Sequence record: OQ721911
DNA from: Escherichia phage vB_VIPECOOM03
DNA length: 64,000 bases
Direction: 5' to 3' (one strand)
Of the stretch, positions 24,936 to 58,512 are shown piece after piece; position 1 is the first letter of the stretch, and the number at the start of each line of letters is the position of its first letter. The notes under the pieces are model-generated. The model had not been told where the DNA came from and ran no database searches. It worked only from the letters and a program-made list of their open reading frames with translations. The position numbers and the translations under genes were made by a program.

Positions 24936-25226
24936 TTATTTGCGGAATGAAATAAAAGCAGCAACTGAAGCAACTAAACTGTCTTCAATATAAACTTCAA
25001 TTTTTACCGGAGCTTCTGATTCAAATTTACCTGTTACTACACCTTGGAAAATGCTTTCAGTCTGTTCTGGCTTTGAAAAATTTTCAGAAGGAAAAATTCC
25101 GAACTTTTTATCTGTTCCAAAAATTTTGATAAATTCATCATAAACTGCTTCATTAAAAGCATTATCAGCAGGAATAACGCCTTCAACTACAAGTTCTTGA
25201 CCTAAAAAGCGCAAAGAAGATTTCAT
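24936..25226 (-). CDS. Hypothetical protein (positional equivalent of T4 alt.-3)
   Basis: 96-aa ORF with GAGGAA RBS, preceded by a GTTTAC promoter-like element. Confidence 0.65.
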   Translation of the reverse strand: MKSSLRFLGQELVVEGVIPADNAFNEAVYDEFIKIFGTDKKFGIFPSENFSKPEQTESIFQGVVTGKFESEAPVKIEVYIEDSLVASVAAFISFRK

Positions 25227-25257
25227 TTTGTGTTCCTCATGTTATGTAAGTAAAATT

Positions 25258-25287
25258 ACTATAACACAACACGAGGGACTTGTAAAC
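25258..25287 (-). promoter_or_regulatory. Early-type promoter-like element (GTTTAC -35, 18-bp spacer, TATAGT -10), copy 1 of a repeated element
   Basis: Minus-strand GTTTACAAGTCCCTCGTGTTGTGTTATAGT; about 90 percent identical over ~55 bp to the element at 41000-41054. Confidence 0.5.
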
Positions 25288-33419: not shown

Positions 33420-33797
33420 TTAAATATCAAATTCGTTAAGAACTACATCAAAAATCGCTTCAAGATGCTCAGGTTTAGCTCTGTTACTCAGAATATGACG
33501 AATCCAAGTTTTAACCAGAAGCTTACGATTGACGCCATTCCAGCAAGGATGAGTCCCTAAATCACGTTGACGGAAATCATCATCTAATGCGATTTTAAAA
33601 GAAGAACCTTCTTTCGTGATTGAAACTGTGATGCCATTTTCAAATCGCATATAAACGTAGTTAGGAGTCATATACTGTTCAATTTCGCATACTGATCCAT
33701 TTTGATGTTTCCAAAGGCAAATAGTATCATTAGAACCTGCAATACCGTTAGAAACATATTTACGTTCAAAGTTGATGTAGTTCATTTTATTCTCCAA
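33420..33797 (-). CDS. Hypothetical protein
   Basis: 125-aa ORF preceded by promoter-like element and RBS GGAGAA. Confidence 0.6.
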   Translation of the reverse strand: MENKMNYINFERKYVSNGIAGSNDTICLWKHQNGSVCEIEQYMTPNYVYMRFENGITVSITKEGSSFKIALDDDFRQRDLGTHPCWNGVNRKLLVKTWIRHILSNRAKPEHLEAIFDVVLNEFDI

Positions 33798-33821
33798 GAT
33801 GTTTAATTGTGGTACAGGTAT

Positions 33822-33850
33822 ATAATATCATATCCTGTACCAAAGTAAAC
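33822..33850 (-). promoter_or_regulatory. Early-type promoter-like element (GTTTAC -35, 17-bp spacer, TATTAT -10) overlapping an inverted repeat
   Basis: Minus-strand GTTTAC...GATATTATA; inverted repeat GGTACAGG/CCTGTACC at 33811-33841 brackets the -10 region. Confidence 0.45.
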
Positions 33851-33852
33851 AA

Positions 33853-34185
33853 TTATTTTACTACTTTCCAGTGCTGCATGTCAAGTTTACCAACTTTTTT
33901 CATCTTCTCAATTAAGCGTTCTGCACGTTGGCGAGCTGTAACATAATACCATTCGCCTAATTCATTTTGTTCAATTTTTCCAACGATTACTGTATTCAAT
34001 TCATAAATCCAACCAGTAAAGAAATTATGAACTTGAATTGTAAAGGTGAAATCTGTTCCCATACCTTCTGTTGTTTCTACTTCAATAATATCACCTTCAA
34101 CTGCCATTAAGAACCACATAGTTTCATCATATTTACCATTGAAGCATTTAGTTTTAACTGTAGCGTTCAGATTAATCGTTTTCAT
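33853..34185 (-). CDS. Hypothetical protein
   Basis: 110-aa ORF. Confidence 0.6.
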   Translation of the reverse strand: MKTINLNATVKTKCFNGKYDETMWFLMAVEGDIIEVETTEGMGTDFTFTIQVHNFFTGWIYELNTVIVGKIEQNELGEWYYVTARQRAERLIEKMKKVGKLDMQHWKVVK

Positions 34186-34263
34186 TTTATTCTCCTTTGC
34201 TTGTGTAAGATAATACTATCACAAAGGAACTATACTGTAAACAACTTTGTGCAATCTTTGGAA

Positions 34264-36916: not shown

Positions 36917-37149
36917 AGTACGCCATACACCCTTTGTGCTTCAACTAATCCATCAAAATCCAATTTGAGATGCGTTATTTGGTCACCATCACCTGGATTC
37001 ACAATTACTAATACTGAACGAGGAGTTTCGGTAATAACACGAACCGATGTTTCTGGAAATCGTTCAGAAACCTTATTTACTAATTCCTGAGCAAATAGTT
37101 TAACTTTTTCTTGGAATTCTTTAACAGTAATTGGTTTTTCGCTTAGCAT
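36913..37149 (-). CDS. Hypothetical protein (cd.x cluster)
   Basis: 78-aa ORF. Confidence 0.55.
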   Translation of the reverse strand: MLSEKPITVKEFQEKVKLFAQELVNKVSERFPETSVRVITETPRSVLVIVNPGDGDQITHLKLDFDGLVEAQRVYGVL

Positions 37150-37670
37150 GTTGATCCCAGCTCCTTACTTTCAACGTTTTTAACTAATTTGACAGAAACT
37201 AATTCAGCATCTTGAGTAATCATTACCGGACCTTCTTCATACTCTTCGAGATATTCTAGAGCTTTCTTTTTAGCTTCTTCCTTCGTATCAGTTTGAGCAT
37301 AGATATAAAACATACAACCAGTAATACCTACTACTTTCCACTTAATTTCTTTATCAGCTTTAATTTCAAATTTACTGACAGAGTCATCTTTTTGAACTTC
37401 TTCGAAAAAAGAATATTCTAACATATAAGCAATTGAAAATAACGGGCTAACTTTATAGGATTCGCCCATTACATCAACAGCTTTATACCAGCAATCATCA
37501 ATTTCACGTTTAATGCTAATAACATTTTTCGCAGGATCTATTTTTACTTTAAATGAATTTTCCCCAATAAACTGGGCAATTCGTTTATTAGCCCCACAGG
37601 TTTCATTAAAAATATCTTTATATCCAGCTTTAAAGCGATAAACCTTATCTTCTTCAAACCATTCGCTCAT
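37143..37670 (-). CDS. Hypothetical protein (cd.x cluster)
   Basis: 175-aa ORF. Confidence 0.6.
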   Translation of the reverse strand: MSEWFEEDKVYRFKAGYKDIFNETCGANKRIAQFIGENSFKVKIDPAKNVISIKREIDDCWYKAVDVMGESYKVSPLFSIAYMLEYSFFEEVQKDDSVSKFEIKADKEIKWKVVGITGCMFYIYAQTDTKEEAKKKALEYLEEYEEGPVMITQDAELVSVKLVKNVESKELGSTC

Positions 37671-37700
37671 TTCAATTTCCTCATTTGTTTTGGTAGAGCT

Positions 37701-37730
37701 ATAATATCACAACTCTACCGTAAAGTAAAC
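37701..37730 (-). promoter_or_regulatory. Early-type promoter-like element (GTTTAC -35, 18-bp spacer, TATTAT -10) overlapping an inverted repeat
   Basis: Minus-strand GTTTACTTTACGGTAGAGTTGTGATATTAT; inverted repeat GGTAGAG/CTCTACC brackets the -10. Confidence 0.45.
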
Positions 37731-40499: not shown

Positions 40500-40996
40500 A
40501 AAGTTTTAATAACCTCTACAATATCGTCTTGAGAAAGACCGTTAATTAAAATATGATGTTCAGCCGGAGATTTAGAAATTTTAAAGCATGCCTCAACATC
40601 TTCTGCCATATCTGATGCACTACGATTTGGATTACTAATTCCAAGACGATGTTTTCCCGTTAAAGGATTAACGATGATATAGCATTTACAGTTATTAATA
40701 TGAACATTAGGTTGAGTCTGATTAATGAACACATCACAATCATATTTTGCAAGCTGATTTTCTAAAAAGACTTTCATCTCCTCAACCGCATCAGGAAGCA
40801 TATCACGGGCTTGCTCAAGACGACGATTTCGATATTCTTTAATGGTCGTTTTCCGCTTGACTTGCTTAGCTAAATCTTTCTTAAGATCGGTGATATATCC
40901 AACTCGACGATTTCCTTTAAATACAGAAATCCCATCTGTAGTATCACCGTATGCTTCAACGACCATTTCAGTAGTAATAAGCTGTAAATCCATCAT
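40490..40996 (-). CDS. alc: Alc, inhibitor of host transcription on cytosine-containing DNA
   Basis: 167/168-aa ORF; MDLQLITTEMVVEAYGDTTDG... recognised as T4 Alc; ATG at 40993 is the alternative start. Confidence 0.9.
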   Translation of the reverse strand: MMDLQLITTEMVVEAYGDTTDGISVFKGNRRVGYITDLKKDLAKQVKRKTTIKEYRNRRLEQARDMLPDAVEEMKVFLENQLAKYDCDVFINQTQPNVHINNCKCYIIVNPLTGKHRLGISNPNRSASDMAEDVEACFKISKSPAEHHILINGLSQDDIVEVIKTLCN

Positions 40997-41024
40997 AAAG
41001 TCCTCATGTTATGTCAGTAAGACT

Positions 41025-41054
41025 ACTGTAACACAACACGAGGGACTTGTAAAC
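41025..41054 (-). promoter_or_regulatory. Early-type promoter-like element (GTTTAC -35, 18-bp spacer, TACAGT -10), copy 2 of repeated element
   Basis: About 90 percent identical over ~55 bp to the element upstream of the ORF at 24936-25226, including the RBS CATGAGGA. Confidence 0.5.
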
Positions 41055-49218: not shown

Positions 49219-49243
49219 TTTATTCTCCTTAGTTGATAGGGTA

Positions 49244-49273
49244 ATAGTATCACACTACTACCCTGTTGTAAAC
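49244..49273 (-). promoter_or_regulatory. Early-type promoter-like element (GTTTAC -35, 18-bp spacer, TACTAT -10) overlapping an inverted repeat
   Basis: Minus-strand GTTTACAACAGGGTAGTAGTGTGATACTAT; inverted repeat AGGGTA/TACCCT brackets the -10. Confidence 0.45.
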
Positions 49274-49932: not shown

Positions 49933-50037
49933 ATTGTTTTCCTCTTTAATCGTCAGCAGTATTGCCGATAGTTGTATAGTACCATAGAAGAACAGGGATG
50001 TAAACCGTTTTGTGAAAAAAATTTTTGAAATAAAAAA

Positions 50038-53248: not shown

Positions 53249-53310
53249 ATGAACCTCGTTCAATTAGTGAGATTTCTATTATATACTATCCAAATCTTAA
53301 AGTAAACAAG

Positions 53311-57230: not shown

Positions 57231-58346
57231 ATGGAAAAATTTATGGCAGAGTTTGGACAAGGATACGTCCAAACGCCATTTTTATCGGAAAGTAATTCAG
57301 TAAGATATAAAATAAGTATAGCGGGTTCTTGCCCGCTTTCTACAGCAGGACCGTATGTTAAATTTCAGGATAATCCTGTCGGAAATCAAACATTTAGCGC
57401 AGGTCTTCATTTAAGAGTTTTTGACCCTTCAACAGGAGCATTAGTTGATAGTAAGTCATATGCTTTTTCTACTTCAAATAATACTACATCAGCTGCTTTT
57501 GTTAGTTTCATGAATTCTTTGTCAAACAATAGACTTGTTGCTATATTAACTAGCGGAAAGGTTAATTTTCCTCCTGAAGTGATATCTTGGTTAAGGGGAG
57601 CAGGAACTTCAGTTTTTCCATCAGATTCAGTATTGTCAAGATTTGACGTATCATATGCTGCTTTTTATACTTCTTCTAAAAGAGCTATTGCATTAGAGCA
57701 TGTTAAACTAAGTAATAGAAAAAGCACAGATGATTATCAAACTATTTTAGATGTTGTATTTGATAGTTTAGAAGACGTCGGAGCTACGGGATTTCCTAAA
57801 AGAACATATGAAAGTGTCGAGCAATTTATGTCAGCGGTTGGTGGAACTAATAACGAAATTGCGCGATTGCCAACTTCAGCTGCTATAAGTAAACTATCTG
57901 ATTATAATTTAATTCCTGGCGATGTTCTTTATCTTAAAGCACAGTTATATGCTGATGCTGATTTACTTGATCTTGGAACTACAAACATATCCATTCGTTT
58001 TTATGATGCATCAAATGGATATATTTCCTCTACCCAAGCTGAGTTTACTGGGCAAGCTGGGTCTTGGGAATTAAAGGAAGATTATGTAGTTGTTCCTGAA
58101 AATGCAGTCGGATTTACTATATATGCGCAGAGAACTGCTCAAGCTGGTCAAGGCGGAATGAGGAATTTAAGCTTTTCTGAAGTATCAAGAAATGGCGGCA
58201 TTTCAAAACCTGCCGAATTTGGCGTCAACGGTATTCGTGTTAATTATATCTGTGAATCGGCTTCACCTCCAGATATAATGGTACTTCCTACACAAGCCTC
58301 TTCTAAAACTGGCAAAGTGTTTGGGCAAGAATTTAGAGAAGTTTAA
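57231..58346 (+). CDS. 35: Long tail fibre hinge connector gp35
   Basis: 371-aa ORF, size and position as T4 gp35. Confidence 0.9.
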   Translation: MEKFMAEFGQGYVQTPFLSESNSVRYKISIAGSCPLSTAGPYVKFQDNPVGNQTFSAGLHLRVFDPSTGALVDSKSYAFSTSNNTTSAAFVSFMNSLSNNRLVAILTSGKVNFPPEVISWLRGAGTSVFPSDSVLSRFDVSYAAFYTSSKRAIALEHVKLSNRKSTDDYQTILDVVFDSLEDVGATGFPKRTYESVEQFMSAVGGTNNEIARLPTSAAISKLSDYNLIPGDVLYLKAQLYADADLLDLGTTNISIRFYDASNGYISSTQAEFTGQAGSWELKEDYVVVPENAVGFTIYAQRTAQAGQGGMRNLSFSEVSRNGGISKPAEFGVNGIRVNYICESASPPDIMVLPTQASSKTGKVFGQEFREV

Positions 58347-58351
58347 ACTGA

Positions 58352-58375
58352 GGGAGCCTTCGGGTTCCCTTTTTC
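58352..58375 (+). terminator. Rho-independent terminator after gene 35 (copy 1)
   Basis: GGGAGCC-ttcg-GGTTCCC (one G-U pair) followed by TTTTTCTTT. Confidence 0.7.
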
Positions 58376-58478
58376 TTTATGAATCGGCTTCACCTCCAGA
58401 TATAATGGTACTTCCTACACAAGCCTCTTCTAAAACTGGCAAAGTGTTTGGGCAAGAATTTAGAGAAGTTTAAACTGA

Positions 58479-58502
58479 GGGAGCCTTCGGGTTCCCTTTT
58501 TC
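58479..58502 (+). terminator. Rho-independent terminator (copy 2, within duplicated unit)
   Basis: Identical hairpin plus T-run 127 bp downstream of copy 1. Confidence 0.65.
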
Positions 58503-58504
58503 TT

Positions 58505-58512
58505 TATAAATA
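58505..58512 (+). promoter_or_regulatory. T4-type late promoter (TATAAATA) for gene 36
   Basis: Exact TATAAATA straddling the end of the second repeat unit, about 24 bp upstream of gene 36 ATG; the equivalent junction after copy 1 reads TTTATGAA and is not a promoter. Confidence 0.65.

Follow-up and report, generated by a model that had tools for sequence, protein, structure and literature searches.

Three T4-type early promoters of an Escherichia phage overlap stem-loops that probably act in read-through RNA

Why should several promoters of one phage carry the -10 hexamer within an inverted repeat? This question is raised by a DNA stretch of 64,000 nucleotides from Escherichia phage vB_VIPECOOM03 (sequence record OQ721911), hereafter called the window. 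An earlier note, made from the sequence alone, had drawn attention to three minus-strand loci where a GTTTAC hexamer is followed after 17-18 nt by a TAyTAT hexamer, the latter being surrounded by a perfect inverted repeat of 6-8 bp. All of these elements are present at the coordinates given in that note. Site 1 (33811-33850, minus strand) is located between genes 30.8 and 30.7. Its -35 hexamer GTTTAC is at 33850-33845 and, after a gap of 17 nt, the -10 hexamer TATTAT is at 33827-33822; the stem-loop spans 33841-33811, and its arms, GGTACAGG (33841-33834) and CCTGTACC (33818-33811), form a perfect repeat of 8 bp. Site 2 (37692-37730, minus strand) follows cd.3 and is the orthologue of the T4 promoter Pe133295. 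Here GTTTAC (37730-37725) is separated by 18 nt from TATTAT (37706-37701), and the stem-loop at 37719-37692 has the arms GGTAGAG (37719-37713) and CTCTACC (37698-37692), a perfect match of 7 bp. Site 3 (49238-49273, minus strand) lies between the frd.2-like and frd.1-like genes, with GTTTAC at 49273-49268, a gap of 18 nt, TACTAT at 49249-49244, and a stem-loop at 49264-49238 made of AGGGTA (49264-49259) and TACCCT (49243-49238), a perfect 6 bp. The core GTGATAyTAT, thought to be shared by all three loci, is found at sites 2 and 3; site 1 reads ATGATATTAT instead.

The window belongs to a Tequatrovirus that is about 97% identical to T4, and its matches to hundreds of T4-like genomes are at about the same level. 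It starts at genome position 96001. Between 33000 and 38500 it is 100% identical to Escherichia phage vB_VIPECOOM01 (OQ721909.1), and a 127-bp duplication near 58381 is the only difference from that record. The three sites are all inside a minus-strand block of early genes. The pattern GTTTAC-N16-19-TAYTAT occurs four times in the window, as against 0.19 expected, and none of 100 shuffles reached four; in this respect the earlier note was right to reject coincidence. The fourth match, at 50005, is without such a repeat. When the whole source genome was searched with GTTTAC-N17/18-TAnnnT, 40 matches were found on the early (minus) strand versus a single one on the plus strand, and nearly all of these 40 promoters directly precede a Shine-Dalgarno sequence and a start codon. 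At the three sites the Shine-Dalgarno and ATG follow 35-45 nt downstream. A generic sigma-70 scan showed no enrichment (66 found versus 66.9 expected), and only the T4-specific pattern separates real promoters from chance ones.

The T4 early promoter is known to have an A-rich UP region around -40 to -44, followed by GTTTAC at -36 to -31 and by an extended -10 that is GT-rich or contains TGn (Nolan 2006, PMC1524935; Hinton 2010, PMC2988021). The three sites show all of these traits: the hexamer, the gap, an extended -10 region (aTGaTATTAT at site 1, gTGaTATTAT at site 2 and gTGaTACTAT at site 3), an UP-like region, the expected position and strand, and orthology with T4. The 10-12 nt upstream, which are gtaaaataatt (site 1), caatttaaca (site 2) and tcaaaaagta (site 3), are A-rich and UP-like as judged by eye. 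When compared with T4, the 40 nt of site 1 are identical, and so is the sequence of site 2, where the record NC_000866 names the promoter Pe133295; site 3 is nearly identical. In published T4 time-course data, the genes that come first after the three promoters, namely 30.7, cd.2 and frd.1, belong to the early RNA class (Wolfram-Schauerte et al. 2022, supplement), and 30.7 is in the early protein class as well. Compared with T4 early promoters, for example Pe133295, there is no substantive difference, as expected for orthologues in a close relative of T4, except that the gene downstream of site 2 differs from the one that follows Pe133295. Judged by their sequence, the three sites are ordinary textbook T4-type early promoters, a class that has long been known. 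By orthology, they would be read, as T4 early promoters are, by the unmodified host sigma-70 polymerase and not with AsiA/MotA.

The note had placed the -10 hexamer in the loop of the repeat. This is correct for strict Watson-Crick pairing in DNA; in sense RNA, however, the three sites form helices of 12-13 bp closed by loops of only 3-4 nt, in which most of the -10 hexamer is paired. The predicted sense RNA folds have energies of -19.7 kcal/mol (z = -6.2) at site 1, -16.3 kcal/mol (z = -4.6; antisense -9.2) at site 2 and -15.2 kcal/mol (z = -2.6) at site 3. The site 2 arms, with their extension in RNA, are GGTAGAG(UU)/(AG)CUCUACC, and the site 3 helix reaches 12 bp when G.U pairs are counted. 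Transcription from a sigma-70 promoter usually starts about 7 nt after the -10 hexamer. Relative to such a start, the 3' arms extend approximately from -3 to +5 (site 1), -4 to +3 (site 2) and -6 to -1 (site 3). At all three sites the Shine-Dalgarno is unpaired and is 13-16 nt away from the end of the helix. At site 1, for example, the Shine-Dalgarno GGAG (33795-33792) and the ATG (33785-33783) of gene 30.7 (together 33783-33795, minus strand) are outside the hairpin, 16 nt downstream. A comparison with Rfam at the gathering threshold found no family anywhere in the window.

Is the pairing more than one would expect from a shared consensus? A permutation control was used in which the spacer of each promoter was paired either with its own 45 nt downstream or with those of every other promoter, so that both composition and consensus are kept. 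Among the promoters of the source genome, 20% of own pairs versus 0.9% of mismatched pairs gave Watson-Crick stems of 8 bp or more, and the corresponding values for 9 bp or more were 15% versus 0.2%. The mean duplex energy was -11.3 kcal/mol for own pairs and -7.8 kcal/mol for mismatched pairs, and none of 20,000 permutations reached the observed value (p<5e-5), which again speaks against coincidence. The same was seen in RB69, a Mosigvirus and therefore of a different genus: in its first 80 kb, stems of at least 8 bp were formed by 29% of own and 3.4% of mismatched pairs, and again 0 of 20,000 permutations matched the observation. The pairing between spacer and downstream region is promoter-specific, non-random and evolutionarily maintained. 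Considered by itself, the repeat at site 3 falls short of significance, its length of 6 bp being reached in 19% of mismatched pairs.

The three sites are examples of a hairpin across the -10 that is common to about half of the early promoters. When the segments from -31 to +31 were folded, z was below -2 in 20 of 40 promoters and below -3 in 16 of 40. Two forms of the helix can be distinguished. In the first, the helix ends approximately at the transcription start; the three flagged sites and several promoters of the internal-protein loci are of this form. In the second, the 3' arm lies over the Shine-Dalgarno, and the window has three promoters of this kind, at 34242, 41054 and 25287. The promoter upstream of 30.8 (34183-34242, minus strand; z = -2.8) has a spacer segment, TTCCTTTGT (34229-34221), complementary to the Shine-Dalgarno region GCAAAGGAG (34200-34192), and a canonical terminator, 34292-34271, is located just upstream of it. 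The promoter upstream of alc (40994-41054, minus strand; -25.7 kcal/mol, z = -4.4) has a spacer (41047-41031) complementary to the Shine-Dalgarno region at 41013-40998, and a near-duplicate of it (25226-25287, minus strand; z = -6.0) has the same Shine-Dalgarno-sequestering helix. Two other promoters are without a bridging hairpin: the one at 49976-50005 (minus strand), with the canonical terminator of gene 32 (50056-50038) ahead of it, and the one upstream of rnh (53278-53307, minus strand), which reads GTTTAC-18-TATAAT. In total, the bridging feature is present in 6 of the 8 promoters of the window.

Related sequences indicate what is being kept. The homologous loci found in IMG/VR numbered just 6-14 for each site, which is not enough for a strong covariation statistic at any single site, and for this reason comparisons of paralogues and orthologues, together with the permutation tests, were used instead. 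At site 1 the stem is constant in 14 relatives while the loop and the flanks vary, and the sole change in the stem, C to U, results in a G.U pair. At site 2, the relative L011 has the arms GGTGGAGTT/AACTCTACC, where the pairing is preserved through G.U and a restored A-U pair. At site 3 the arms around the -10 vary, being AGGCTAT/ATAGCCT, GGTCTAT/ATAGACC or ATGGGGCT/GGTCCCAT in different orthologues; the last pair is quite different and flanks a TATAAT box. In the subset of site 3 orthologues that share a fixed register, all 77 of 77 cells in the 11-pair helix are paired. Two pairs are changed on both sides (AU to GC and GC to UA), both of the one-sided changes (n=2) lead to wobble pairs, and the pairing falls to 23-51% if the partner is shifted by 1-3 columns. 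Replacement of both arms together in homologous promoters indicates a base-paired structure and not a sequence-specific operator. Comparison among promoters gives the same picture. Their arms include GGTACAGG, GGTAGAG, AGGGTA, ATAGGCTC, GGGACC and GATGAGGTA, to which other T4-like contigs add GTGTAGGAGC and GGTGTAGGATG; in promoters with the common 3' sequence TACCCTATC, the 5' arms that pair with it sit at differing positions of the spacer.

The hairpins are also related to the position of the preceding gene. At all three sites, the stop codon is -1 to 2 nt from the -35 hexamer. The preceding stop codon is no more than 14 nt away from the -35 at 18 of 19 hairpin promoters (median distance 2 nt) versus 7 of 19 hairpin-less ones (median 39 nt), and this adjacency is significant (Fisher p = 0.0004). 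A separate canonical terminator upstream is present at 5 of 21 hairpin-less promoters versus 1 of 19 hairpin promoters, a difference that is not significant alone (p = 0.19). Where a hairpin-less promoter has such a terminator, it lies within the longer spacer, as at 50056-50038 and genome position 162698.

The explanation that we favor, and consider rather probable, is that these are T4-type early promoters combined with a PeSL-type stem-loop that forms in read-through RNA. The PeSLs (promoter-early stem-loops) of phages RB49 and phi1 were defined as fusions of an early promoter with a stem-loop (Arbiol 2010). According to this explanation, the unmodified host sigma-70 polymerase would use the three promoters immediately after infection. 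The promoters are packed against the stop codon of the preceding early gene, and the inverted repeat would be an RNA stem-loop with its 5' arm in the spacer between -35 and -10 and its 3' arm ending at about +1 to +5. We infer the start sites and the read-through RNA at the three sites from what is known of T4. With this arm geometry, an RNA started locally would be without the hairpin, which would be formed only in read-through RNA coming from upstream promoters. The read-through RNA would then have a hairpin directly after the upstream cistron. There, the hairpin may mark or insulate the end of the upstream message, either as a weak attenuator or as a barrier that stabilizes the 3' end after cleavage farther downstream; action in RNA is probable, and the particular role is a guess. 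Where the upstream gene leaves no space behind it for a 3' structure of its own, such a structure may have been written into the promoter. In the sister promoters whose 3' arm covers the Shine-Dalgarno, the downstream gene would be silenced on the read-through RNA only.

It is unlikely, as a full account, that the elements act at the DNA level, namely that a hairpin, a cruciform or simply a conserved patch serves as a recombination hot spot which shuffles the neighboring genes, without any role in RNA. There are several observations in its favor. Indels begin right behind sites 2 and 3. A 175-aa gene (phrog_3710; 37143-37670, minus strand), which is absent from T4 according to alignment and annotation, separates cd.2 from the 5' UTR of the promoter at site 2, so that the indel adjoins the cassette; at site 3, a T4 segment with a 22-aa ORF between the promoter and frd.1 is missing here, and the promoter itself is variable. 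No indel was found next to site 1 among the relatives compared. Moreover, a crossover has been mapped within the loop of a PeSL (Arbiol 2010). Finally, in X03007.1, the pseT region of T4 cloned in 1985, the loop of site 2 is reversed (GGTAGAG-CTATAATATCACAA-CTCTACC), the 14-bp loop being exactly inverted, possibly by an arm-mediated event in the clone. In this orientation the distance between GTTTAC and TATAAT falls to just 13 nt, and the promoter is lost. The T4 record has a note on the same 14-bp loop, stating that it is the inverted complement of an earlier sequence and corrects Pe133295 between cd.2 and cd.3. The flip in X03007.1 may be a reading error, or it may be a real arm-mediated flip selected in the plasmid; strong phage promoters are difficult to clone (Arbiol 2010). 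However, X03007.1 is the only database sequence with the flipped loop, and more than 700 phage genomes all have the promoter orientation.

The energies also argue against a DNA structure. With Watson-Crick arms of 7-8 bp and loops of 12-15 nt, DNA hairpins are predicted to be weaker, at -9.2 (site 1), -5.0 (site 2) and -6.8 kcal/mol (site 3) versus -15 to -20 kcal/mol in RNA, and by this calculation the three sites would be poor cruciform material. The single mismatches inside the real helices also show a bias. There are 11 G.T, 2 A.C and 1 other (7:2:1 after removal of homologous duplicates), as compared with 19:8:62 (G.T:A.C:other) in mismatched-control helices (binomial p = 0.0013, on small counts). 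Such a G.T bias is unexpected for a cruciform, where it would be A.C on the opposite strand. Sense folds are better than antisense folds across the 40 promoters (p = 2e-4). This was at first sight a proof of RNA structure, but it has been downgraded, as the same bias is seen in chance motif matches of unrelated contigs; it comes partly from the G+T-rich consensus and is weak evidence. A pure recombination role would also not predict a link with adjacent stop codons. Taken together, the evidence on sequence and predicted folding leans towards a structure in the sense RNA. The two readings are compatible, and both could be true.

It is quite unlikely that the repeats have no function at all, being a by-product of the self-complementarity of the consensus (the GT-rich spacer versus the conserved start region TACCCTATC) or of quasi-palindromes "corrected" from a template, a type of mutation well known in T4. 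By changing both arms in one step, such a mutation could mimic a compensatory change without any selection, and this caveat applies to the covariation described above. In addition, GTGATAyTAT pairs with itself via G.U, and motif matches in unrelated contigs often fold over the -10 (66%, versus 77% in T4-like contigs). Because of this self-pairing, the presence of 6 or more bridging pairs in the minimum-energy fold is not discriminating and was rejected as a measure. Nevertheless, a permutation that keeps the consensus still gives promoter-specific pairing in two genera, the hairpins are concentrated at promoters that touch a stop codon, and the stem of site 1 is invariant while its loop and flanks diverge.

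Still less likely is the possibility that the stem-loops are efficient terminators of the upstream gene, as measured for one G+C-rich PeSL stem-loop of RB49, which lowered lacZ expression to an extent similar to that of rrnB T1 (Arbiol 2010). The tendency of the hairpins and separate canonical terminators to alternate is in line with such a role. On the other hand, the stems are AU/GU-rich, and no U-tract follows any of the three hairpins: the tails are ACAATTAA, AAAACAAA and ATCAACTA, with 0-2 T in the next 8 nt, which makes classic intrinsic termination unlikely. A terminator scan did not report the three sites and returned only the canonical 50056-50038 and 34292-34271.

Of the two options left by the earlier note, a regulated promoter class or a protein-binding operator, the first corresponds to the long-known T4 early promoters, and the second, a dimeric phage or host DNA-binding protein that would bind both arms and regulate (for example, shut off) early promoters, is highly improbable: although GGTA...TACC is common to the three flagged arms and the shut-off of T4 early promoters is not fully explained (Hinton 2010), the shared GGTA falls in the GT-rich part of the promoter consensus, the arms are otherwise unrelated across the class (e.g. 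ATAGGCTC, GGGACC, GTGTAGGAGC, ATGGGGCT), their position relative to the -10 shifts among promoters with the same 3' arm, orthologues alter both arms together, and the conserved half-sites at a fixed spacing that one expects of a palindromic operator are not seen across sites and relatives.

To return to the favored explanation, a stem-loop acting in read-through RNA, it may be extended, tentatively, to the whole genome: T-even phages possibly have a genome-wide "transcript-origin discriminator", of which the -10-spanning stem-loops, instead of being incidental to PeSLs, would be one half, an idea that we regard as doubtful at present. About half of the early promoters could have a spacer tuned to pair downstream of the -10. 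Read-through RNA could then carry a hairpin as a mark where one cistron borders on another, or could have the next ribosome binding site and RegB site (GGAG) masked, while the local RNA would be free. The target of RegB is the GGAG of early ribosome binding sites, and secondary structure blocks the cutting (Uzan and Miller 2010). If this is true, the stability and translation of immediate-early and read-through (delayed-early) messages could be controlled separately for each packed early gene. Even in its narrower form, the RNA reading, if true, would mean that the packed early genes of T-even phages tell local from read-through messages without extra sequence, which bears on the distinction between immediate-early and delayed-early messages and on the choice of RegB targets. 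There is also a practical warning for annotation and phage engineering: an altered promoter spacer may alter RNA structure.

For the most part, these observations re-discover the T4 early promoter and the promoter-overlapping stem-loops, and nothing new needs explaining. The added value is quantitative: promoter-specific pairing in two genera, the link to the stop codon, and the two forms of the helix. Several known systems can be compared. First, Rho-independent terminators resemble the three sites in having a stem-loop right after the stop codon; the three sites differ in their weaker stems and in lacking the U-tract, and none combines a G+C-rich stem with a run of U. For contrast, the canonical terminator of the window at 50056-50038 consists of GGGGACC...GGTCCCC followed by TTTTTT. 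Second, in the T4 genes e, soc, 49 and I-TevI, a promoter is located in a helix that is formed by long upstream transcripts, while transcripts from the internal promoter are without the 5' arm (Uzan & Miller 2010). In those genes the internal promoter is late and the ribosome binding site is sequestered, whereas the three flagged sites leave the Shine-Dalgarno free and thus are not switches of this sort. The promoters at 34242, 41054 and 25287 do have such a design, with the Shine-Dalgarno in the 3' arm, but the promoter inside is an early one.

Third, there is a likeness with the PeSLs. Their stem-loops, whose stems have marked G-T pairs, mostly sit between -35 and -10 or overlap the -10. For one of them, from RB49, a strong cut in downstream expression was shown, and recombination between cassettes was detected (Arbiol 2010). 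Analogous AT-richer elements, based on T4 early promoters, are mentioned for the internal-protein loci of T-even phages (Arbiol 2010, citing Repoila et al. 1994). PeSLs were later extended to PST/T4, with the promoter consensus TTTACW-N17-TAYWAT, and according to a figure legend the stem-loops of PST are "just upstream" of the promoter (Comeau 2014). The three sites match the position defined in 2010, and the wording of that legend differs. The differences from RB49 and phi1 are in the stems, which are G/C-rich there (GGGG...CCCC), one of them stopping transcription, whereas those described here are AU/GU-rich, have no U-tract and are known from sequence. The likeness is in the spacer or -10-overlapping stem-loops, the G-T pairs in the stems, the TTTACW-N17-TAYWAT promoter and the adjoining indels, the latter at sites 2 and 3. 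As in PeSLs, each of the three sites combines a promoter and a stable stem-loop, in the described position, between the upstream stop codon and the downstream Shine-Dalgarno and ATG. The repeats are PeSL-type promoter-overlapping stem-loops, a kind already described in T4-like phages, and most likely they act as an RNA hairpin in read-through transcripts and not as a protein operator.

Three early promoters on the minus strand of the window, other than sites 1, 2 and 3, share a complementarity with the genes that they serve: in the promoters of 30.8 (34183-34242), of alc (40994-41054) and of the gene after alt (25226-25287), the spacer between the -35 and -10 elements matches, as its complement, the respective gene's Shine-Dalgarno region. 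On read-through RNA arriving from promoters further upstream, the ribosome binding site and the site for RegB, which cuts GGAG in early ribosome binding sites, would be masked, and on locally started RNA both would be free of such masking. A helix between the promoter spacer and the Shine-Dalgarno sequence of regB itself is common to the source phage (about 10190-10248 of L003; genome position 60248) and RB69 (about 11300-11362 of L161), with both arms altered between them: CCTCTTGACTG/CAGTTAAGAGG in the source phage and TTCTCCTCTAGTTG/CAACTAGAGGAGAA in RB69.

Next to site 1, a T4-type early promoter, there is a second promoter-like match on the minus strand, TTGACA-18 nt-TAAAAT (33855-33884), agreeing with the sigma-70 consensus at 11 of 12 positions. 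It lies within the 3' end of gene 30.8, upstream of the site 1 GTTTAC, from which 4 nt separate its end. It may be a chance match or a tandem promoter.

Comparison of the window with Escherichia phage vB_VIPECOOM01 (OQ721909.1) revealed a 127-bp tandem duplication (58381-58507), outside which the window matches that record exactly. As seen by comparing 58320-58380 with 58447-58507, tail-fibre gene 35 has its 3' end in two copies in the window, and the terminator hairpin of this gene (GGGAGCCTTCGGGTTCCC, then TTTTT) is likewise doubled.

At the early promoter site 2, a 175-aa minus-strand gene (phrog_3710, 37143-37670), present in the window and several relatives and absent from T4, is inserted exactly between the 5' UTR of the promoter and cd.2, the start of which it overlaps. 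In the T4 pseT region cloned in 1985 (X03007.1, 2256-2378), the 14-bp site 2 loop, compared against window 37699-37712, lies in exactly the opposite orientation between its two 7-bp arms, and the promoter is destroyed as a result. This orientation is absent from every one of >700 phage genomes. Either a sequencing error or an arm-mediated flip, favoured by selection while a strong promoter was cloned, could account for it.

Finally, the window lacks a 22-codon ORF found upstream of frd.1 in T4 (minus strand, 19040-19110 of L001, T4 146039-146109), and unannotated in the T4 record NC_000866. In T4 and some relatives (it is also in L012 and L023), this ORF lies between the site 3 early promoter and frd.1, has its own Shine-Dalgarno sequence and encodes a hydrophobic product, MFAPYIMAAVMLVCLYLLIKAC.
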